Source: Escherichia coli (lineage in GTDB: Bacteria > Pseudomonadota > Gammaproteobacteria > Enterobacterales > Enterobacteriaceae). Taken from it: 64,000 nucleotides of DNA. The stretch lies in assembly GCF_003790525.1 (NCBI RefSeq), contig NZ_CP033635.1; one strand, given 5' to 3'. Of this stretch, positions 36,131-57,954 are shown piece after piece. The position numbers were made by a program, and so were the translations under genes. Numbering within the stretch: position 1 is the stretch's first letter; each line of letters begins with the position of its first letter. The notes under the pieces are model-generated. The model worked only from the letters and a program-made list of their open reading frames with translations. It was not told the origin of the DNA and ran no database searches.

Positions 36131-37174
36131 ATGCGCTATCGCATTTTCCTTCTCTTTTTTTTCGCTTTGTTGCCGACGTCTTTGGTGTGGGCGGCACCAG
36201 CGCAACGGGCGTTTTCCGACTGGCAGGTCACCTGTAATAACCAAAACTTCTGCGTGGCGCGTAATACGGGCGATCATAACGGACTGGTGATGACCCTGAG
36301 CCGCAGCGCCGGGGCGCATACCGATGCCGTTTTACGTATTGAGCGCGGCGGGTTGAAGTCGCCGGATGCGTCTGAAGGGGAGATAGCGCCACGGCTGCTG
36401 TTAGATGGTGAGCCGTTGGCGTTAAGTGGTGACAAGTGGCGGATTTCACCATGGTTACTAGTAACCGATGATACGGCAACCATCACCGCGTTTTTGCAGC
36501 TGATTCAGGAAGGGAAGGCAATCACCTTACGCGATGGCAATCAGACCATTTCTCTGAATGGCTTAAAAGCGGCGTTGTTGTTTATTGATGCTCAGCAAAA
36601 GCGCGTTGGCAGTGAAACCGCGTGGATAAAGAAAGGGGACGAACCGCCGCTCAGCGTACCGCCCGCGCCTGCGCTGAAAGAGGTCGCGGTGGTTAACCCA
36701 ACGCCGACGCCACTCTCACTCGAAGAACGCAACGATTTGCTGGATTATGGAAACTGGCGGATGAATGGTCTGCGCTGCTCGCTTGATCCGTTACGTCGTG
36801 AGGTGAATGTCACTGCGCTGACCGATGATAAAGCACTGATGATGATTAGCTGTGAGGCAGGGGCCTATAACACCATTGATTTGGCATGGATTGTGTCGCG
36901 TAAAAAGCCGCTAGCCTCGCGCCCGGTTCGGTTGCGTTTGCCGTTCAACAACGGTCAGGAGACGAATGAACTGGAACTGATGAACGCAACATTTGATGAG
37001 AAATCGCGTGAACTGGTGACCTTAGCGAAAGGGCGCGGATTAAGCGATTGTGGCATTCAGGCGCGCTGGCGCTTTGACGGTCAGCGTTTTCGCCTGGTGC
37101 GTTACGCCGCAGAACCCACCTGCGATAACTGGCATGGGCCAGACGCCTGGCCCACGTTGTGGATCACCCGTTAA
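36131..37174 (+). CDS. ypfG: Periplasmic DUF1176-family protein
   Basis: 347-aa ORF with signal peptide (MRYRIFLLFFFALLPTSLVWA); synteny. Confidence 0.8.
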   Translation: MRYRIFLLFFFALLPTSLVWAAPAQRAFSDWQVTCNNQNFCVARNTGDHNGLVMTLSRSAGAHTDAVLRIERGGLKSPDASEGEIAPRLLLDGEPLALSGDKWRISPWLLVTDDTATITAFLQLIQEGKAITLRDGNQTISLNGLKAALLFIDAQQKRVGSETAWIKKGDEPPLSVPPAPALKEVAVVNPTPTPLSLEERNDLLDYGNWRMNGLRCSLDPLRREVNVTALTDDKALMMISCEAGAYNTIDLAWIVSRKKPLASRPVRLRLPFNNGQETNELELMNATFDEKSRELVTLAKGRGLSDCGIQARWRFDGQRFRLVRYAAEPTCDNWHGPDAWPTLWITR

Positions 37175-37217
37175 ACAAAATCCCAGATGCGCCCCTAAAA
37201 AGCGCACAGACTGTCTC

Positions 37218-37255
37218 CTCGCCCCTCTGGGGAGAGGGTTAGGGTTAGGGGAACA
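37218..37255. repeat. G-rich 38-bp intergenic repeat, copy 1 (CTCGCCCCTCTGGGGAGAGGGTTAGGGTTAGGGGAACA)
   Basis: Near-identical (36/38) to a second copy at 50611-50648; contains the CCCTCT-GGGG-AGAGGG hairpin; sits between ypfG and the tktB 3' end. Confidence 0.6.
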
Positions 37256-37276
37256 TACAGCATCCGGCGATCACCA

Positions 37277-39280
37277 TCAGGCACCTTTCACTCCCAGCAC
37301 CTTATGCGCTTTTGCCACAATATTCTCGGCGGTAAAGCCAAAGAACGGGAACAGCTTATCCGCCGGAGCAGATTCCCCGTAACCCGTCATCCCGACAATT
37401 GCCCCTTTCAGACCAACATACTTGTACCAGTAATCGGCGATGCCTGCTTCCACCGCTACGCGAGCCGCAACGTTAGAAGGCAACACCGACTCCCGATATT
37501 CCTCATCCTGGGCGTCGAAAATATCGGTCGAGGGCAGGGAAACTACGCGTACATTGCGACCTTCTCCCGCTAATTTCTCTGCCGCTTGCAGGGTGATTTC
37601 CATCTCTGAACCGGTGGCAATCAAAATAATATCTGGCTTACCGCCGCTGTCTTTCAACACATAACCACCACGAGCAATCTCTTTAACCTGATCCGGCGTA
37701 CGTTCCACCTGGGCCAGATTCTGCCTGGAGAGGATCAGTGCCGTCGGTCCGTTGTGGCGCTCAACCGCCAGCTTCCAGCCCACCGCTGCTTCCACCTGAT
37801 CGCACGGTCGCCAGGTGCTGAAATTTGGCGTTAAGCGCAGACTGGCCAGTTGCTCAACAGCCTGGTGCGTAGGACCATCTTCGCCCAGGCCAATTGAGTC
37901 GTGGGTATAAACCATAATCTGCCGCGCTTTCATCAGTGCCGCCATCCGCGCGGCGTTACGGGCGTATTCAACAAACATCAGGAACGTCGCGGTATACGGC
38001 ACAAAGCCGCCGTGGTGCGCAATGCCGTTGGCGATAGCGGTCATGCCAAATTCACGCACCCCGTAGTGAATGTAGTTGCCCGCCGGATCTTCCTTCAGCG
38101 AAACAGAACCTTTCCAGATGGTCAGGTTGCTGGGAGCCAGATCCGCCGAACCGCCGAGCAGCTCCGGTAGCATAGGCCCGTAAGCGTTAAGCGTATTTTG
38201 CGAAGCCTTACGGGTAGCGATTTTCGCCGGATTCGCCTGCAACTCATTGATATATTTCTGAGTCGTTTTCTCCCAGTCCTTCGGTAAACCACCGCTCATC
38301 CGACGGGTAAACTCTTCTGCCAGTTGCGGATGAGCCTTTTTATAGGCGGCAAACTTCTCATTCCAGCTCTGCTGCGCTTTTTCGCCTTTTTCGCGGGCAT
38401 CCCAGGCGTGATAAATCTCTTTAGGGATCTCAAATGGCGGATGGTGCCAGCCCAGTTTTTGCCGTGCCAGCGCCACTTCTTCTTCCCCCAGTGGTGCGCC
38501 GTGCGCCTCTTCCTTACCTGCTTTATTCGGCGAACCAAAGCCAATCACCGTACGGCAGATAATCAGCGACGGCTTATCTTTCACGCTTTGCGCTTCAAGG
38601 ATCGCTTCCTTCACCGCCTGCGGATCGTGGCCGTCGATCTCGTGGATCACATGCCAGTGATAGGCTTCAAAACGTTTTGCTGTATCGTCGGTAAACCAGC
38701 CTTCGGTTTCACCGTCGATGGAAATACCGTTGTGATCGTAAAAACCAATCAGCTTGCCCAGTCCCAGCGTGCCCGCCAGCGAACAGACTTCGTGGGAAAT
38801 ACCTTCCATCAGGCAGCCGTCGCCCATAAACACATAGGTGAAGTGATCGACAATTTCATGATCTGGCTGGTTAAACTGCGCCGCCAGCGTACGCTCTGCT
38901 ATCGCCAGCCCGACGGCGTTCGCCAAACCTTGTCCAAGTGGACCGGTGGTGGTTTCAACACCAGGCGTATAGCCGATTTCCGGGTGACCAGGGGTTTTCG
39001 AATGCAACTGACGAAAGTTCTTCAGTTCTTCCAGCGGCAGGTCGTAACCGGTCAGATGCAGCAAACTGTAGAGCAGCATCGACGCGTGACCGTTGGAAAG
39101 AATAAAGCGGTCGCGATCATACCAGGTTGGGTCGGTAGGATTATGTTTAAGAAAATCGTTCCACAGCACTTCGGCAATATCAGCCATGCCCATCGGCGCG
39201 CCGGGATGACCAGAATTGGCTTTTTGTACCGCATCCATACTGAGTGCGCGAATCGCATTGGCAAGGTCTTTTCGGGACAT
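37277..39280 (-). CDS. tktB: Transketolase 2
   Basis: Track ORF 37277-39343; the ATG at 39280 ([31 protein letters not shown]) has a GGAGTG RBS; 667 aa. Confidence 0.95.
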
Positions 39281-47164: not shown

Positions 47165-48568
47165 ATGAATCAACAGGATATTGAACAGGTGGTGAAAGCG
47201 GTACTGCTGAAAATGCAAAGCAGTGACACGCCGCCCGCCGCCGTTCATGAGATGGGCGTTTTCGCGTCCCTGGATGACGCCGTTGCGGCAGCCAAAGTCG
47301 CCCAGCAAGGGTTAAAAAGCGTGGCAATGCGCCAGTTAGCCATTGCTGCCATTCGTGAGGCAGGCGAAAAACACGCCAGAGATTTAGCGGAACTTGCCGT
47401 CAGTGAAACCGGCATGGGGCGCGTTGAAGATAAATTTGCCAAAAACGTCGCTCAGGCGCGCGGCACACCAGGCGTTGAGTGCCTCTCACCACAGGTGCTG
47501 ACCGGTGACAACGGCCTGACCCTGATTGAAAACGCGCCCTGGGGCGTGGTGGCTTCGGTGACGCCTTCCACTAACCCGGCGGCAACCGTAATTAACAACG
47601 CCATCAGCCTGATTGCCGCGGGCAACAGCGTCATTTTTGCCCCGCATCCGGCGGCGAAAAAAGTCTCCCAGCGGGCGATTACGCTGCTCAACCAGGCGAT
47701 TGTTGCCGCAGGCGGGCCGGAAAACTTACTGGTTACTGTGGCCAATCCGGATATCGAAACCGCGCAACGTTTGTTCAAGTTCCCGGGTATCGGCCTGCTG
47801 GTGGTGACCGGCGGCGAAGCGGTAGTGGAAGCGGCGCGTAAACACACCAATAAACGTCTGATTGCCGCAGGCGCTGGCAACCCGCCGGTAGTGGTGGATG
47901 AAACCGCCGACCTCGCCCGTGCTGCTCAGTCCATCGTCAAAGGCGCGTCTTTCGATAACAACATCATTTGTGCCGACGAAAAGGTACTGATTGTTGTTGA
48001 TAGCGTAGCCGATGAACTGATGCGTCTGATGGAAGGCCAGCATGCGGTGAAACTGACCGCAGAGCAGGCGCAGCAACTGCAATCGGTGTTGCTGAAAAAT
48101 ATCGACGAGTGCGGAAAAGGCACCGTCAGCCGTGACTGGGTTGGTCGCGATGCGGCGAAAATCGCGGCGGCAATCGGCCTTAAAGTTCCGGAACAAACGC
48201 GACTGCTGTTTGTAGAAACCACCGCAGAACATCCGTTTGCCGTGACCGAACTGATGATGCCGGTGCTGCCCGTCGTGCGCGTCGCCAACGTGGCGGATGC
48301 CATTGCGCTGGCGGTGAAACTGGAAGGCGGTTGCCACCACACGGCGGCAATGCACTCGCGCAATATCGAGAACATGAACCAGATGGCGAATGCCATTGAT
48401 ACCAGCATTTTCGTTAAGAACGGACCGTGCATTGCCGGGCTGGGGCTGGGCGGGGAAGGCTGGACCACCATGACCATCACCACGCCAACCGGTGAAGGGG
48501 TAACCAGCGCGCGGACGTTTGTCCGTCTGCGTCGCTGTGTATTAGTCGATGCGTTTCGCATTGTTTAA
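47165..48568 (+). CDS. eutE: CoA-acylating acetaldehyde dehydrogenase
   Basis: 467-aa aldehyde-dehydrogenase-family ORF with N-terminal BMC-targeting-like segment. Confidence 0.9.
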   Translation: MNQQDIEQVVKAVLLKMQSSDTPPAAVHEMGVFASLDDAVAAAKVAQQGLKSVAMRQLAIAAIREAGEKHARDLAELAVSETGMGRVEDKFAKNVAQARGTPGVECLSPQVLTGDNGLTLIENAPWGVVASVTPSTNPAATVINNAISLIAAGNSVIFAPHPAAKKVSQRAITLLNQAIVAAGGPENLLVTVANPDIETAQRLFKFPGIGLLVVTGGEAVVEAARKHTNKRLIAAGAGNPPVVVDETADLARAAQSIVKGASFDNNIICADEKVLIVVDSVADELMRLMEGQHAVKLTAEQAQQLQSVLLKNIDECGKGTVSRDWVGRDAAKIAAAIGLKVPEQTRLLFVETTAEHPFAVTELMMPVLPVVRVANVADAIALAVKLEGGCHHTAAMHSRNIENMNQMANAIDTSIFVKNGPCIAGLGLGGEGWTTMTITTPTGEGVTSARTFVRLRRCVLVDAFRIV

Positions 48569-49415: not shown

Positions 49416-50592
49416 ATTGCAGACCGCGCTCTTTCAGGCGTTCGATACCCTGAATCTGCAACGGGTAAAAACATTTAGCGTTCCACCGGTGACGCTTTGC
49501 GGTCCGGGCGCGGTGAGCAGTTGTGGGCAGCAAGCGCAAACGCGTGGGCTGAAACATCTGTTCGTGATGGCAGACAGCTTTTTGCATCAGGCAGGGATGA
49601 CCGCCGGGCTGACACGTAGCCTGGCCGTTAAAGGTATCGCCATGACGCTCTGGCCATGTCCGGTGGGCGAACCATGCATCACCGACGTGTGTGCAGCCGT
49701 GGCGCAGTTGCGTGAATCAGGCTGTGACGGGGTGATTGCGTTTGGCGGCGGCTCGGTGCTGGATGCAGCAAAAGCCGTGGCGTTGCTGGTGACGAACCCG
49801 GATAGCACGCTGGCAGAGATGTCAGAAACCAGCGTTCTGCAACCGCGCCTGCCGTTGATTGCCATTCCGACTACCGCCGGAACCGGCTCTGAAACCACCA
49901 ACGTAACGGTGATTATCGATGCGGTGAGCGGGCGTAAGCAGGTGTTAGCCCATGCCTCGCTGATGCCGGATGTGGCGATTCTCGACGCCGCATTGACCGA
50001 AGGTGTGCCGTCGCATGTCACGGCGATGACTGGCATTGATGCGTTAACCCATGCCATTGAAGCGTACAGCGCGCTGAACGCCACACCATTTACCGACAGC
50101 CTGGCGATTGGCGCCATTGCGATGATTGGTCAATCGCTGCCGAAAGCGGTGGGCTACGGTCACGACCTTGCCGCGCGCGAGAGCATGTTGCTGGCTTCAT
50201 GTATGGCGGGAATGGCGTTTTCCAGTGCGGGGCTTGGGTTGTGCCACGCGATGGCGCATCAGCCAGGGGCGGCGCTGCATATTCCGCACGGTCTGGCGAA
50301 CGCTATGTTGCTGCCAACGGTAATGGAATTTAACCGGATGGTTTGTCGTGATCGGTTTAGTCAGATTGGCCGGGCGCTGAGAACTAAAAAATCCGACGAT
50401 CGTGACGCTATTAACGCGGTAAGTGAGCTGATTGCGGAAGTCGGGATTGGTAAACGACTGGGCGATATTGGTGCGACATCTGCGCATTACGGCGCATGGG
50501 CGCAGGCCGCGCTGGAAGATATTTGTCTGCGCAGCAACCCGCGTACCGCCAGCCTGGAGCAGATTATTGGTCTGTATGCTGCGGCGCAATAA
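49405..50592 (+). CDS. eutG: Iron-containing alcohol dehydrogenase
   Basis: 395-aa Fe-ADH-family ORF; 11-nt overlap with eutJ. Confidence 0.9.
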   Translation: MQNELQTALFQAFDTLNLQRVKTFSVPPVTLCGPGAVSSCGQQAQTRGLKHLFVMADSFLHQAGMTAGLTRSLAVKGIAMTLWPCPVGEPCITDVCAAVAQLRESGCDGVIAFGGGSVLDAAKAVALLVTNPDSTLAEMSETSVLQPRLPLIAIPTTAGTGSETTNVTVIIDAVSGRKQVLAHASLMPDVAILDAALTEGVPSHVTAMTGIDALTHAIEAYSALNATPFTDSLAIGAIAMIGQSLPKAVGYGHDLAARESMLLASCMAGMAFSSAGLGLCHAMAHQPGAALHIPHGLANAMLLPTVMEFNRMVCRDRFSQIGRALRTKKSDDRDAINAVSELIAEVGIGKRLGDIGATSAHYGAWAQAALEDICLRSNPRTASLEQIIGLYAAAQ

Positions 50593-50610
50593 AAGTGTAC
50601 GGACAGTCCC

Positions 50611-50648
50611 CTCGCCCCTTTGGGGAGAGGGTTAGGGTGAGGGGAACA
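50611..50648. repeat. G-rich 38-bp intergenic repeat, copy 2 (CTCGCCCCTTTGGGGAGAGGGTTAGGGTGAGGGGAACA)
   Basis: 36/38 identical to 37218-37255; followed by partial inverted copies (ccctcacccc at 50674-50683, gtgaggg at 50701-50707) in the 169-bp eutG-eutH spacer. Confidence 0.6.
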
Positions 50649-50761
50649 GAGTCGCTCCGGTGCAAACAATTACCCTCACCCCGGTCCCTCGGCTTCCAGA
50701 GTGAGGGAAAAACCCACTTTCAGCATTGGCAATAAATAACAACTAACAGGGAGTAAAGGCG

Positions 50762-51988
50762 ATGGGAATTAACGAAATCATCATGTACATCATGATGTTC
50801 TTTATGCTGATAGCTGCCGTAGACAGGATCCTGTCGCAGTTCGGCGGTTCTGCTCGTTTCCTCGGTAAGTTCGGTAAAAGTATCGAAGGATCCGGCAGTC
50901 AGTTCGAAGAAGGCTTTATGGCAATGGGCGCTTTGGGCCTGGCGATGGTTGGTATGACCGCGCTGGCACCTGTTCTGGCCCACGTACTCGGACCGGTGAT
51001 TATCCCGGTTTACGAAATGCTCGGCGCAAACCCGTCAATGTTCGCCGGAACACTGCTGGCGTGCGATATGGGCGGCTTCTTCCTCGCCAAAGAGTTGGCG
51101 GGCGGCGACGTAGCAGCGTGGCTATACTCTGGATTAATTCTCGGGTCGATGATGGGGCCAACGATTGTGTTTTCCATTCCGGTGGCGCTCGGCATTATCG
51201 AACCTTCTGACCGTCGTTATCTGGCGCTCGGCGTGCTGGCGGGCATTGTGACCATTCCGATTGGCTGTATTGCCGGTGGTCTGGTGGCTATGTACTCCGG
51301 TGTGCAGATCAACGGTCAGCCAGTGGAATTCACCTTTGCGCTGATCCTGATGAACATGATCCCGGTACTTATCGTTGCGGTGCTGGTGGCGCTGGGGCTG
51401 AAATTCATCCCGGAAAAAATGATCAACGGCTTCCAGATCTTCGCCAAATTCCTCGTTGCATTGATCACCCTCGGTCTTGCCGCTGCGGTAGTGAAATTCC
51501 TCCTTGGCTGGGAACTGATCCCGGGCCTTGATCCTATCTTTATGGCCCCTGGCGATAAACCCGGTGAAGTGATGCGCGCCATTGAAGTTATCGGCTCGAT
51601 CTCCTGCGTTCTGTTAGGGGCGTATCCGATGGTGCTGCTGCTGACTCGCTGGTTTGAAAAACCGCTGATGAGTGTCGGTAAGGTGCTGAATATGAACAAT
51701 ATAGCGGCAGCCGGCATGGTGGCAACGCTTGCCAACAACATCCCGATGTTTGGCATGATGAAGCAGATGGATACCCGCGGCAAAGTCATCAACTGTGCCT
51801 TCGCCGTTTCCGCTGCTTTCGCCCTGGGCGACCATTTAGGCTTCGCGGCTGCCAACATGAACGCCATGATCTTCCCGATGATTGTCGGCAAGCTGATCGG
51901 CGGCGTCACGGCGATTGGCGTGGCGATGATGCTGGTACCTAAAGAAGACGCGAGCGCGGCTAAAACCGAAGCGGAGGCGCAATCGTGA
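50762..51988 (+). CDS. eutH: Ethanolamine permease/facilitator
   Basis: 408-aa polytopic membrane ORF. Confidence 0.9.
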   Translation: MGINEIIMYIMMFFMLIAAVDRILSQFGGSARFLGKFGKSIEGSGSQFEEGFMAMGALGLAMVGMTALAPVLAHVLGPVIIPVYEMLGANPSMFAGTLLACDMGGFFLAKELAGGDVAAWLYSGLILGSMMGPTIVFSIPVALGIIEPSDRRYLALGVLAGIVTIPIGCIAGGLVAMYSGVQINGQPVEFTFALILMNMIPVLIVAVLVALGLKFIPEKMINGFQIFAKFLVALITLGLAAAVVKFLLGWELIPGLDPIFMAPGDKPGEVMRAIEVIGSISCVLLGAYPMVLLLTRWFEKPLMSVGKVLNMNNIAAAGMVATLANNIPMFGMMKQMDTRGKVINCAFAVSAAFALGDHLGFAAANMNAMIFPMIVGKLIGGVTAIGVAMMLVPKEDASAAKTEAEAQS

Positions 51989-53388
51989 ACACTCGCCAGC
52001 TACTGAGCGTCGGTATCGATATCGGCACCACCACCACCCAGGTGATTTTCTCCCACCTGGAGCTGGTTAACCGTGCGGCGGTGTCGCAGGTGCCGCGCTA
52101 CGAATTCATCAAACGCGAAATTAGCTGGCAAAGCCCGGTGTTCTTTACCCCTGTCGATAAACAGGGTGGTTTAAAAGAAGCGGAACTGAAAACCTTAATC
52201 CTGGATCAATATCAGGCTGCGGGCATTGCGCCGGAAAGTGTTGATTCTGGTGCCATCATCATCACCGGTGAAAGCGCGAAAACCCGCAACGCTCGCCCGG
52301 CGGTGATGACGCTCTCCCAGTCGCTGGGCGATTTTGTCGTCGCCAGCGCCGGGCCGCATCTCGAATCCGTGATCGCCGGTCACGGTGCCGGGGCGCAAAC
52401 TCTTTCTGAACAACGGCTGTGTCGGGTACTGAATATCGATATCGGCGGTGGCACTGCGAACTACGCCCTGTTCGATGCCGGAAAAATCAGCGGCACCGCC
52501 TGCCTCAACGTCGGCGGTCGCCTGCTGGAAACCGACAGCCAGGGGCGCGTGGTTTACGCTCATAAACCGGGGCAGATGATTGTGGATGAGTGCTTCGGCG
52601 CAGGCACTGACGCCCGTTCGCTGACCGGCGCGCAGCTGGTGCAGGTTACCCGCCGGATGGCAGAGCTGATTGTCGAAGTGATTGACGGAACGCTTTCGCC
52701 GCTCGCGCAGGCATTGATGCAAACCGGTTTGCTGCCCGTAGGTGTTACGCCCGAAATCATTACGCTTTCTGGCGGCGTTGGCGAATGTTATCGCCACCAG
52801 CCCGCCGACCCGTTCTGTTTTGCCGATATTGGCCCGCTTCTGGCAACGGCGCTGCATGACCATCCGCGCCTGCGTGAGATGAACGTGCAGTTTCCGGCGC
52901 AAACCGTGCGCGCCACGGTGATTGGCGCGGGTGCACATACCCTTTCGCTCTCTGGCAGCACAATCTGGCTGGAGGGCGTACAACTGCCGCTGCGCAACTT
53001 GCCGGTGGCGATCCCAATTGATGAAAAGGATCTGGTGAGTGCCTGGCAACAGGCGCTGATTCAGCTGGATCTTGATCCTAAAACTGACGCGTACGTGCTG
53101 GCGCTTCCCGCCTCGCTGCCTGTGCGTTACGCCGCGGTACTGACGGTCATCAACGCGTTGGTCGATTTCGTCGCGCGTTTTCCGAATCCGCATCCCCTGC
53201 TGGTGGTGGCCGGGCAGGACTTTGGTAAAGCTCTGGGCATGTTGTTGCGCCCACAGCTACAACAACTCCCGTTGGCAGTCATTGACGAAGTGATTGTCCG
53301 CGCGGGGGACTATATCGACATTGGTACGCCTCTTTTTGGCGGATCGGTTGTGCCGGTGACGGTGAAATCACTCGCATTTCCTTCCTGA
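51985..53388 (+). CDS. eutA: Ethanolamine ammonia-lyase reactivating factor
   Basis: 467-aa ORF; ATGA overlap with eutH. Confidence 0.9.
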   Translation: MNTRQLLSVGIDIGTTTTQVIFSHLELVNRAAVSQVPRYEFIKREISWQSPVFFTPVDKQGGLKEAELKTLILDQYQAAGIAPESVDSGAIIITGESAKTRNARPAVMTLSQSLGDFVVASAGPHLESVIAGHGAGAQTLSEQRLCRVLNIDIGGGTANYALFDAGKISGTACLNVGGRLLETDSQGRVVYAHKPGQMIVDECFGAGTDARSLTGAQLVQVTRRMAELIVEVIDGTLSPLAQALMQTGLLPVGVTPEIITLSGGVGECYRHQPADPFCFADIGPLLATALHDHPRLREMNVQFPAQTVRATVIGAGAHTLSLSGSTIWLEGVQLPLRNLPVAIPIDEKDLVSAWQQALIQLDLDPKTDAYVLALPASLPVRYAAVLTVINALVDFVARFPNPHPLLVVAGQDFGKALGMLLRPQLQQLPLAVIDEVIVRAGDYIDIGTPLFGGSVVPVTVKSLAFPS

Positions 53389-53399
53389 GGGAACGACTT

Positions 53400-54761
53400 A
53401 TGAAACTAAAGACCACATTGTTCGGCAATGTATATCAGTTTAAGGATGTAAAAGAGGTGCTGGCTAAAGCCAACGAACTGCGTTCGGGGGATGTGCTGGC
53501 GGGCGTTGCTGCGGCAAGCTCACAGGAGCGCGTGGCGGCAAAGCAGGTGTTGTCGGAAATGACCGTAGCGGACATCCGCAATAATCCGGTGATTGCCTAT
53601 GAAGATGACTGCGTGACGCGGCTGATTCAGGACGATGTTAACGAAACGGCCTACAACCAGATTAAAAACTGGAGCATCAGCGAACTGCGTGAGTATGTGC
53701 TGAGCGATGAAACCAGCGTGGACGACATTGCCTTTACCCGCAAAGGGCTGACCTCGGAAGTGGTAGCGGCGGTAGCGAAGATTTGCTCCAACGCGGACCT
53801 GATCTACGGCGCGAAGAAAATGCCGGTGATCAAAAAGGCCAATACCACCATCGGTATTCCGGGCACCTTTAGCGCCCGCTTGCAGCCAAACGATACCCGT
53901 GACGATGTGCAAAGTATCGCCGCGCAAATCTACGAAGGGCTTTCCTTCGGGGTGGGCGATGCGGTGATCGGCGTTAACCCGGTGACTGACGACGTGGAAA
54001 ACTTAAGCCGCGTGTTGGATACCATCTATGGCGTGATCGACAAATTCAACATCCCAACTCAGGGCTGCGTACTGGCGCACGTCACCACCCAGATCGAAGC
54101 GATTCGTCGCGGCGCACCGGGCGGGCTGATTTTCCAGAGTATTTGCGGCAGCGAAAAAGGGCTGAAAGAGTTTGGCGTGGAGCTGGCGATGCTCGACGAA
54201 GCGCGCGCAGTGGGTGCAGAGTTTAACCGTATCGCCGGGGAAAACTGCCTCTACTTCGAAACCGGACAAGGTTCGGCGCTGTCCGCTGGCGCTAACTTCG
54301 GCGCTGACCAGGTGACGATGGAAGCGCGTAACTATGGGCTGGCGCGTCATTACGATCCGTTTATCGTCAACACCGTGGTCGGTTTTATTGGGCCGGAGTA
54401 TCTCTACAACGACCGCCAGATTATCCGCGCGGGCTTAGAAGATCACTTTATGGGCAAGCTGAGCGGCATCTCTATGGGCTGTGACTGCTGCTACACCAAC
54501 CACGCTGACGCTGACCAGAACCTCAACGAAAACCTGATGATCCTGCTCGCCACCGCAGGCTGTAACTACATCATGGGGATGCCGCTGGGTGATGACATCA
54601 TGCTCAACTACCAGACTACGGCCTTCCACGACACCGCCACTGTGCGTCAGTTACTCAACCTGCGCCCGTCACCGGAGTTTGAACGCTGGCTGGAAAGCAT
54701 GGGCATTATGGCAAACGGTCGCCTGACCAAACGGGCGGGCGATCCGTCACTGTTCTTCTGA
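53400..54761 (+). CDS. eutB: Ethanolamine ammonia-lyase large subunit
   Basis: 453-aa ORF starting 11 bp after the eutA stop. Confidence 0.95.
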   Translation: MKLKTTLFGNVYQFKDVKEVLAKANELRSGDVLAGVAAASSQERVAAKQVLSEMTVADIRNNPVIAYEDDCVTRLIQDDVNETAYNQIKNWSISELREYVLSDETSVDDIAFTRKGLTSEVVAAVAKICSNADLIYGAKKMPVIKKANTTIGIPGTFSARLQPNDTRDDVQSIAAQIYEGLSFGVGDAVIGVNPVTDDVENLSRVLDTIYGVIDKFNIPTQGCVLAHVTTQIEAIRRGAPGGLIFQSICGSEKGLKEFGVELAMLDEARAVGAEFNRIAGENCLYFETGQGSALSAGANFGADQVTMEARNYGLARHYDPFIVNTVVGFIGPEYLYNDRQIIRAGLEDHFMGKLSGISMGCDCCYTNHADADQNLNENLMILLATAGCNYIMGMPLGDDIMLNYQTTAFHDTATVRQLLNLRPSPEFERWLESMGIMANGRLTKRAGDPSLFF

Positions 54762-54781
54762 TGACGCGGAGATAACACATC

Positions 54782-55669
54782 ATGGATCAAAAACAGATTG
54801 AAGAAATTGTACGCAGCGTGATGGCGTCAATGGGACAAGCGGCCCCCGCGCCGTCAGAAGCAAAGTGCGCCACCACCACCTGTACGACACCAGTGACCTC
54901 GGAAAGCTGCGCGCTGGATTTAGGTTCTGCGGAAGCAAAAGCGTGGATTGGTGTGGAAAACCCGCATCGCGCAGACGTATTAACAGAACTGCGTCGCAGC
55001 ACCGTGGCCCGCGTTTGTACCGGTCGTGCCGGTCCGCGTCCGCGTACCCAGGCGTTGCTGCGTTTCCTGGCCGATCACTCTCGTTCGAAAGATACCGTAC
55101 TGAAAGAAGTGCCGGAAGAGTGGGTGAAAGCGCAGGGCTTGCTGGAAGTCCGCTCTGAAATTAGCGACAAAAATCTCTACCTGACTCGTCCGGATATGGG
55201 CCGCCGCCTGTGTGCAGAAGCTGTTGAAGCGCTGAAAGCGCAGTGTGTTGCCAATCCGGACGTGCAGGTCGTTATTTCTGATGGCCTGTCAACTGATGCG
55301 ATCACCGTGAACTACGAAGAGATCCTGCCACCGCTGATGGCGGGCCTGAAACAGGCCGGGCTGAAAGTCGGTACGCCATTCTTTGTTCGTTATGGTCGCG
55401 TGAAGATTGAAGATCAGATCGGTGAGATCCTCGGCGCGAAAGTGGTGATCCTGCTGGTGGGGGAACGCCCGGGATTAGGGCAGTCAGAAAGCCTCTCCTG
55501 CTACGCCGTTTACTCGCCGCGTATTGCAACCACCGTTGAGGCCGATCGTACCTGTATCTCTAACATTCACCAGGGCGGCACGCCGCCGGTTGAAGCCGCA
55601 GCCGTCATTGTGGATTTGGCGAAACGTATGCTGGAGCAGAAAGCATCCGGCATCAACATGACCCGATAA
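54782..55669 (+). CDS. eutC: Ethanolamine ammonia-lyase small subunit
   Basis: 295-aa ORF. Confidence 0.95.
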
Positions 55670-55678
55670 GGAGGCATC

Positions 55679-56338
55679 ATGCCAGCTTTAGATTTGATTC
55701 GACCGTCGGTAACCGCCATGCGGGTGATTGCCTCCGTTAACGCCGAATTTGCACGTGAACTGAAATTGCCGCCGCATATTCGTAGCCTCGGGCTGATTTC
55801 TGCTGATTCAGATGACGTCACCTACATTGCGGCTGACGAAGCGACCAAGCAGGCGATGGTCGAAGTGGTATATGGTCGCTCGCTGTATGCGGGCGCTGCA
55901 CACGGCCCGTCACCGACTGCCGGTGAGGTGCTGATTATGCTGGGTGGGCCAAACCCGGCGGAAGTGCGTGCTGGTCTGGATGCGATGGTTGCGCATATTG
56001 AAAATGGCGCTGCTTTCCAGTGGGCTAATGACGCAGAAAATACAGCCTTCCTGGCACATGTCGTTTCGCGTACCGGTTCTTATCTCTCATCAACCGCCGG
56101 GATCACGCCTGGCGATCCGATGGCGTATCTGGTGGCACCGCCGCTGGAAGCGACCTACGGCATTGATGCAGCGTTGAAATCTGCCGACGTGCAGCTGGTG
56201 ACCTATGTCCCGCCACCGTCTGAAACCAACTACTCGGCAGCATTTTTAACCGGTAGCCAGGCCGCGTGTAAAGCAGCCTGTAACGCCTTTACCGATGCAG
56301 TGCTGGAAATCGCGCGTAATCCAATCCAGCGTGCGTAA
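55679..56338 (+). CDS. eutL: BMC shell protein (tandem-BMC trimer)
   Basis: 219-aa ORF. Confidence 0.9.
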
Positions 56339-56350
56339 CGGAGGTTGCCG

Positions 56351-56851
56351 ATGATCAATGCACTGGGATTGCTGGAAGTGGACGGCATGGTCGCCGCGAT
56401 AGATGCAGCTGATGCCATACTCAAAGCAGCTAACGTTCGTCTGCTCAGTCATGAAGTGCTTGACCCTGGTCGCCTAACGCTGGTGGTGGAAGGCGATCTG
56501 GCGGCGTGTCGTGCGGCGCTGGACGCAGGTTGTGCTGCCGCGATGCGTACCGGGCGTGTCATCAGCCGTAAGGAGATCGGTCGGCCAGACGATGACACCC
56601 AGTGGCTGGTTACTGGCTTTAACCGCCAGCCGAAGCAACCCGTAAAGGAACCCGACGCGCCAGTTATCGTCGCGGAATCTGCTGACGAGTTGTTGGCGCT
56701 GTTAACATCAGTACGTCAGGGAATGACGGCAGGAGAAGTGGCTGCCCACTTTGGCTGGCCGCTGGAAAAAGCCAGAAATGCGCTCGAACAGCTCTTTTCT
56801 GCCGGGACGTTACGTAAACGCAGTAGTCGTTACCGTCTCAAGCCCCATTAA
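56351..56851 (+). CDS. eutK: BMC shell protein with C-terminal nucleic-acid-binding-like domain
   Basis: Track ORF starts at TTG 56345; the ATG at 56351 (MINALGLLEVDGMVAAIDAADA) has a GGAGG RBS; 166 aa. Confidence 0.85.
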   Translation: MINALGLLEVDGMVAAIDAADAILKAANVRLLSHEVLDPGRLTLVVEGDLAACRAALDAGCAAAMRTGRVISRKEIGRPDDDTQWLVTGFNRQPKQPVKEPDAPVIVAESADELLALLTSVRQGMTAGEVAAHFGWPLEKARNALEQLFSAGTLRKRSSRYRLKPH

Positions 56852-56896: not shown

Positions 56897-57949
56897 ATGA
56901 AAAAGACCCGTACAGCCAATTTGCACCATCTTTATCATGAACCCTTACCCGAAAACCTGAAGCTCACGCCGAAGGTCGAAGTGGATAATGTTCATCAACG
57001 ACAGACAACGGATGTCTATGAACATGCTTTGACAATTACCGCCTGGCAGCAGATTTACGATCAGCTGCATCCGGGCAAGTTTCATGGTGAATTTACGGAA
57101 ATTCTACTCGATGATATTCAGGTTTTTCGTGAATACACTGGTCTGGCGCTGCGTCAGTCGTGCCTGGTCTGGCCGAACTCGTTCTGGTTTGGCATTCCGG
57201 CGACGCGCGGTGAGCAGGGATTTATCGGTTCGCAATGTCTGGGAAGCGCAGAAATTGCGACGCGCCCGGGTGGAACCGAGTTTGAATTAAGTACGCCGGA
57301 CGATTACACGATCCTGGGCGTAGTGCTTTCTGAAGATGTCATCACTCGTCAGGCTAACTTTTTGCATAATCCGGATCGGGTATTACATATGCTGCGTAGC
57401 CAGTCGGCGTTGGAAGTGAAAGAGCAGCATAAAGCCGCGCTGTGGGGCTTTGTCCAACAGGCGCTGGCGACATTTTGCGAGAACCCGGAAAATCTTCATC
57501 AGCCTGCTGTGCGTAAAGTGCTGGGGGATAATTTGCTCATGGCGATGGGGGCGATGCTGGAAGAAGCGCAGCCAATGGTGACGGCGGAAAGCATCAGTCA
57601 TCAGAGTTACCGTCGATTGCTTTCCCGCGCCCGTGAATATGTGCTGGAAAACATGTCTGAACCGGTAACGGTGTTGGAGTTGTGCAATCAATTGCATGTC
57701 AGCCGCCGCACGCTACAAAACGCGTTTCACGCTATTTTAGGCATTGGCCCAAACGCGTGGCTGAAACGCATTCGCCTGAACGCCGTACGCCGCGAACTGA
57801 TAAGCCCGTGGTCGCAAAGCACAACGGTAAAAGACGCCGCCATGCAGTGGGGATTCTGGCATCTGGGGCAATTTGCCACGGATTACCAGCAGCTGTTTGC
57901 CGAGAAGCCGTCACTGACGCTGCATCAGCGGATGCGGGAGTGGGGGTGA
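56897..57949 (+). CDS. eutR: AraC-family transcriptional activator of the eut operon
   Basis: 350-aa ORF with C-terminal AraC-type HTH. Confidence 0.9.
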
Positions 57950-57954
57950 GGGAG

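Follow-up and report, generated by a model that had tools for sequence, protein, structure and literature searches.

The two G-rich intergenic repeats detected in a 64,000-nucleotide stretch of Escherichia coli DNA (the window) were very probably copies of BoxC, a non-coding repeat of no demonstrated function in the cell. The repeat is not new, as the family has carried four names since 1992 and the second of the two copies (copy 2) has been tabulated individually for the near-identical strain SMS-3-5. BoxC was first noted next to envM/fabI (Bergler 1992), and was later redescribed as PIT elements (Hoyne 2000, 2002), as TMECO triplex motifs and as HPG1/HPG2 G-quadruplex motifs. TMECO was equated with the motif earlier called BoxC and re-found as PIT elements by Holder et al. 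2015 (PMC4666352), in which the consensus was given as CCCTCNCCC-N3-6-GGGNGAGGG-N3-GGGNGAGGG and 23 strict copies were reported in MG1655, with the member sequences tabulated in its Table 1. The HPG1 core GGGAGAGGGTTAGGGTGAGGG and its CCG-loop variant, HPG2, were described by Kaplan et al. 2016 (PMC5100583). The original K-12 GenBank record contained 33 BoxC annotations with lengths of 51-59 bp, about 56 bp. The earlier note on this DNA had left the family unnamed; the repeat proved to be catalogued as BoxC, PIT, TMECO and HPG1, and was accounted for by this catalogued family. The sequence, the three-block anatomy, the intergenic site, the multi-copy dispersal, the pairing of type A with inverted type B and the variability between strains were all the same here as in the published BoxC/PIT/TMECO/HPG1-HPG2 family. 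Nothing essential differed from BoxC; copy 1 and the type B partner of copy 2 failed the strict published pattern, both being decayed.

The sequences at 37218-37255 and 50611-50648, both on the + strand, were identical at 36 of 38 positions, and 100 dinucleotide-preserving shuffles yielded no chance match to the 38-mer. The 38-bp repeat was thus present twice as the earlier note had claimed, with its length understated, since the similarity extended to 37197-37255 and 50590-50648 (51/59 identical). The shared 59 bp fits the published BoxC unit length of 51-59 bp. The 5' extension common to both copies, AAAAG(C/T)G(C/T)AC(A/G)GAC(T/A)GT / AAAAGnGnACnGACnGT, was also found in several K-12 copies. 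A likeness by chance or local convergence between two sequences of no family can be dismissed, given that no chance matches were expected, that thousands of family copies were present in E. coli genomes and that copy 2 was identical to published members. Both copies were intergenic, in the ypfG-tktB and eutG-eutH spacers, and lay downstream of two unrelated genes, as had been described. The internal hairpin CCCTCT-GGGG-AGAGGG, which had been attributed to the repeat, was perfect only in copy 1, and represented one of several competing registers. No further copies were detected in the window by strict patterns and short-word BLAST, apart from a chance 10-mer at 57943-57952. The search of the whole window against Rfam gave no matches at the gathering threshold, and only chance-level ones were obtained on both loci with E up to 10. 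Over both loci the window was 100% identical to E. coli SC516; SMS-3-5 was 100% identical over the short queries, of 101 bp and 300 bp.

Copy 1 was located in the 102-bp spacer (37175-37276) between the convergent genes ypfG, with its stop at 37172-37174, and tktB, with its stop at 37277-37279 on the - strand. In the BoxC unit a C-rich 9-mer precedes two G-rich 9-mers that are both complementary to it, and in a single strand the C block can pair with either G block. The following features were assigned at copy 1.

37197..37255, + strand: BoxC type A, copy 1 (decayed allele), from pattern comparison and alignment with copy 2
37197-37214: 5' extension of copy 1
37216-37224: C-block TCCTCGCCC, followed by the loop CTCTG
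37230-37238: G-block 1 GGGAGAGGG, followed by the loop TTA
37242-37250: G-block 2 GGGTTAGGG, followed by the tail GAACA
37260..37269, no strand: REP-like half site GCATCCGGCG, from alignment of spacer alleles

The strict TMECO pattern was missed by copy 1 at 2 of the 27 block positions, namely at 37216 (C->T, C block) and at 37246 (G->T), the latter being the midpoint of the second G block, where it falls in the third strand's central triad. Copy 1 was a decayed allele, because the ortholog at the same site in CFSAN018748 had the canonical sequence CCCTCGCCCCTCTGGGGAGAGGGTTAGGGTGAGGGG, an exact pattern match. Its absence from the published SMS-3-5 list is explained by the two deviations, which a pattern search would miss. 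The G->T substitution retained the G4 potential of copy 1 and lost the central triplex triad. It was also observed that this substitution turned the G-rich arm at 37236-37251 into GGGTTAGGGTTAGGGG, which corresponds to two and a half vertebrate telomere repeat units. The half site GCATCCGGCG was common to the BoxC- and REP-bearing ypfG-tktB alleles, and marked where the variable cassette ends on the right. A REP stem was considered for the sequence flanking copy 1 on the left, CCCAGATGCG, and dropped as too weak.

Copy 2 began at the eutG stop codon (50590-50592) and ran on into the eutG-eutH spacer (50593-50761), with eutH starting 170 bp downstream, at 50762; it was situated within the 17-gene eut operon, upstream of eutH and eutABC. 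In this operon eutA and eutB were adjacent (eutH-eutA-eutB, about 51,000-56,000), leaving it uninterrupted; the eut operon of K-12 carries a cryptic prophage. The features of copy 2 and its surroundings were as follows.

50586..50593, no strand: 8-bp direct repeat GCAATAAA, left copy, bracketing the 143-bp BoxC cassette
50591..50648, + strand: BoxC type A, copy 2 (canonical), from a strict TMECO pattern match at 50609-50643; its 5' extension overlaps the eutG stop codon only
50609-50617: C-block CCCTCGCCC, followed by the loop CTTTG
50623-50631: G-block 1, followed by the loop TTA
50635-50643: G-block 2 GGGTGAGGG, followed by the tail GAACA
50649..50671, + strand: spacer of the composite A+B element, homologous to the composite spacers of K-12 fepB-entC, ygfF-gcvP and alx-sstT
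50672..50707, - strand: degenerate BoxC type B, inverted, CCCTCACTCTGGAAGCCGAGGGACCGGGGTGAGGGT, from alignment with the composites
50729..50736, no strand: 8-bp direct repeat GCAATAAA, right copy

The strict TMECO pattern had its sole match in the window at copy 2, which was letter-identical to TMECO Nos 7, 11 and 15 of MG1655, published as "type A mm". The same copy is TMECO No. 157 of SMS-3-5 (Holder Table S8), at 2652573-2652608 in the orthologous eutG-eutH spacer, and the distance from No. 157 to the copy-1 locus in SMS-3-5 was exactly 13,419 bp, the same as in the window. Copy 2 was half of a known composite consisting of type A and inverted type B. Such pairs of type A (TTA loop) and inverted type B (CCG/TCG loop), ~26-27 bp apart, were noted by both Holder (PMC4666352) and Kaplan (PMC5100583), and in the window 27 bp lay between the type A core (50609-50644) and the type B core (50672-50707). 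The eutG-eutH cassette was aligned end to end, spacer included, with three K-12 A+B composites (fepB-entC, ygfF-gcvP and alx-sstT). In the type B partner the third block and the CCG loop were intact, and the first two blocks had decayed.

The dispersal of the family was evaluated with the 101-bp copy-1 query, which was found at 56,567 places in 5,423 of the 5,426 complete E. coli genomes (median 11 per genome, range 1-23), almost all of them chromosomal. These counts agreed with the small dispersed element that had been suspected from the window. In the tables of Holder, UTI89, S88 and E2348/69, strains of phylogroup B2, have 1-2 copies, and SE11 and W have 26-30. The family was rare on mobile elements: among plasmid records it was present in 78 of 72,556 (PLSDB), many of which were megabase replicons, and Azospirillum and Rhizobium replicons were among the matches; among phage records it was present in 3 of 50,697. 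A 47-bp match with 93.6% identity to the BoxC core was observed in the Campylobacter jejuni phages A18a and A11a, an unexpected host range for which contamination or chance is possible. In the pattern scan of the whole collection, the exact three-block pattern was also seen far outside the enterobacteria, at no fewer than 120 loci in at least three organisms. Among the matches listed, dozens were in Mitsuaria chitosanitabida and others in a Methylomirabilota MAG and a Contendobacter MAG; among these listed matches the loops were lineage-specific (e.g. GCTTGC) and inverted pairs were frequent. The retention of the three 9-mers in very distant bacteria speaks against a complete lack of function and argues for some constraint, from either a structure or a protein partner.

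The two spacers were polymorphic in E. coli, most strains having REP/BIME elements in place of BoxC. With the BoxC allele at ypfG-tktB taken as at least 80% coverage of the 101-bp copy-1 query, it was carried by 1,633 of 5,426 genomes, and the other five alleles aligned contained 1-3 REP units between the same flanks. The window-type eutG-eutH spacer, defined as at least 80% coverage of a 601-bp query, was carried by 305 of 5,426 genomes. Among seven other eutG-eutH alleles, including that of K-12, the smallest content was one partly deleted unit and the largest was 5 BIME units, each about 100 bp long, and the BIME-bearing ones had the same 8-bp bracket (CAATAAAT). No empty eutG-eutH allele was detected with a synthetic empty-site query in 60 sampled genomes, all of which were filled or only partly aligned. 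No earlier report of allelic alternation between BoxC and BIME was found in a literature search, and because that search was unproductive the alternation is not claimed here as new. Alternative alleles were also determined at three K-12 BoxC loci. At pstA-pstB a clean filled/empty pair was present with a single type A BoxC, in which the filled allele (that of K-12) was longer by 92 bp, the 8-bp repeat AACCGTGT was present three times and a BIME lay 17 bp from the insertion point; of 30 genomes sampled, about 12 were filled. The alternative allele of frlR-yhfS had a 52-bp internal deletion that left the C-block remnant GAGGGGACCGT, and that of tauD-hemB had an unrelated short hairpin, GCCGGGTTGGATAACCCGGC, in place of the BoxC cassette. 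The outcomes at these three loci match the 'intergenic change' categories of Holder (PMC4666352). On the likeliest reading, BoxC occupies intergenic spacers that tolerate it, both at the 3' ends of genes and between cistrons, and turns over by gain, replacement and decay as E. coli strains diverge.

A role of the two copies at the RNA level, either as a terminator or as a 3' hairpin shielding the upstream message from exonucleases in the manner of REP/BIME, was judged very unlikely. The element does lie just 3' of ypfG, tktB and eutG, and the same two spacers hold REP/BIME in other strains, elements that stabilise upstream mRNA. The 54-nt RNA was folded at -18 kcal/mol for copy 1 and -23.7 kcal/mol for copy 2, with the C-rich block paired to the first G block, or to the second G block in copy 2 (ViennaRNA predictions, hairpin pairing only), but these energies barely beat those of shuffles (z-scores -0.2 to -1.9). 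A compound stem, GAUCGCCGGAUGC...GCAUCUGGGAUU, can be formed by the whole spacer on the tktB strand (37175-37290, - strand), with BoxC inside and UUUUGUUU after it; its energy was no better than that of shuffles (z = -0.5). BoxC resembles Rho-independent terminators in being a G+C-rich hairpin just downstream of genes, but differs from them in that the T-run after the stem is absent on both strands and that members are found inside operons. No hairpin-plus-T-run was present at either copy on either strand, and promoter and terminator scans detected nothing at either copy. Copy 2 lies in mid-operon and another member lies between pstA and pstB, where a strong terminator, as at eutG-eutH, would be polar on essential downstream cistrons. 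A terminator role for intra-operon copies was speculated on by Kaplan et al. (PMC5100583), whereas the reporter tests of Hoyne and Maher 2002, as summarised by Holder et al. (PMC4666352), were negative for both promoter and terminator activity, and the orientation of the family relative to genes is unbiased (PMC4666352). The terminator or RNA-stability role suggested in the earlier note was therefore not supported, with no terminator-like site at the copies, fold energies near those of shuffles, copy 2 and the pst member inside operons and the published reporter tests negative.

An action on the DNA itself, in which a transient triplex or G-quadruplex on single-stranded DNA stalls replication or repair and makes BoxC a rearrangement hotspot (Holder et al.) or a regulatory switch (Kaplan et al.), also seemed unlikely for these copies. 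By CD and NMR, the single-stranded DNA adopts a very stable purine-motif intrastrand triplex (PMC4666352), or a G-quadruplex depending on the ion, and the 'type A mm' sequence, identical to copy 2, forms a triplex in vitro with a Tm of about 74 C (PMC4666352). In vivo, however, DMS footprinting gave no support for a stable triplex, and no triplex signal was seen for the duplex form (PMC4666352). Both copies were canonical G4 motifs and constituted 2 of only 3 such motifs in the 64-kb window; the third, GGGCTGGGGCTGGGCGGGG at 48437-48455 on the + strand, precedes eutG in the eut operon and has no relation to BoxC. The triplex of copy 1 is predicted from its sequence to be weaker, since the G->T at 37246 hits the central triad, yet copy 1 with this substitution persists in many strains. 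The high variability of both spacers among E. coli, together with the clean absence, partial deletion or cassette replacement seen at other BoxC loci, would fit a hotspot, but strains without BoxC also vary at eutG-eutH, from 1 to 5 BIME units. Because the BIME alleles vary too, the variability is a property of the slot, for which BoxC is not demonstrably responsible. Read as ordinary BoxC copies, the two elements probably have little or no function, and any effect they have would come from a stable transcript hairpin or from single-stranded DNA taking up a transient non-B structure.

Given the bracketing repeats and the shared slots, BoxC was also considered as an active or recently active MITE or REP-doublet mobile element that makes an 8-bp target duplication and uses the same slots as REP/BIME, which we regard as improbable. 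Like MITEs, BoxC is small, non-coding, dispersed and polymorphic in presence, and AACCGTGT brackets the pstA-pstB copy as GCAATAAA brackets the eutG-eutH cassette. The 8-bp repeats flank both the pstA-pstB insertion, for which a clean empty allele exists, and the eutG-eutH cassette, although slippage deletion could equally give such repeats. BoxC differs from MITEs in that neither a cognate transposase nor defined terminal inverted repeats were identified, and one of its alternative alleles was an internal deletion and not a clean excision. To our knowledge, no transposase is associated with BoxC, unlike the REP transposases. BoxC shares with REP/BIME the slot type (gene 3' ends and intercistronic sites), the palindromic character and the multi-copy state, the latter elements occupy these two spacers in other strains, and the BoxC composite of A and inverted B is similar to an inverted REP doublet, whereas the sequences of the two families are unrelated. 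The REP/BIME signature, an imperfect palindrome of ~35-40 bp (GCCGGATGCG...CTTATCCGGCCTAC), was absent from the window copies and present in alternative alleles of both spacers, which upheld the earlier view that the repeat is not a canonical REP unit. At eutG-eutH the same CAATAAA direct repeats enclose a BoxC composite in some strains and a BIME array in others, a pattern that on this reading would point to a mobilising enzyme, or to selection that favours 'some structured element' in these places. Insertion versus deletion of the motif during evolution was left open by Holder et al. (PMC4666352).

As a discovery the two repeats carry little weight, being ordinary members of a known repeat, one of them decaying and the other half of a decaying composite. 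These results suggested that scans of genomes should recognise BoxC/TMECO, decayed copies included, before G-rich intergenic repeats are flagged. The alternation of BoxC with REP/BIME, together with the 8-bp brackets, offers a concrete way to ask whether BoxC is mobile, and the mildly new lead for the family lies in these brackets.
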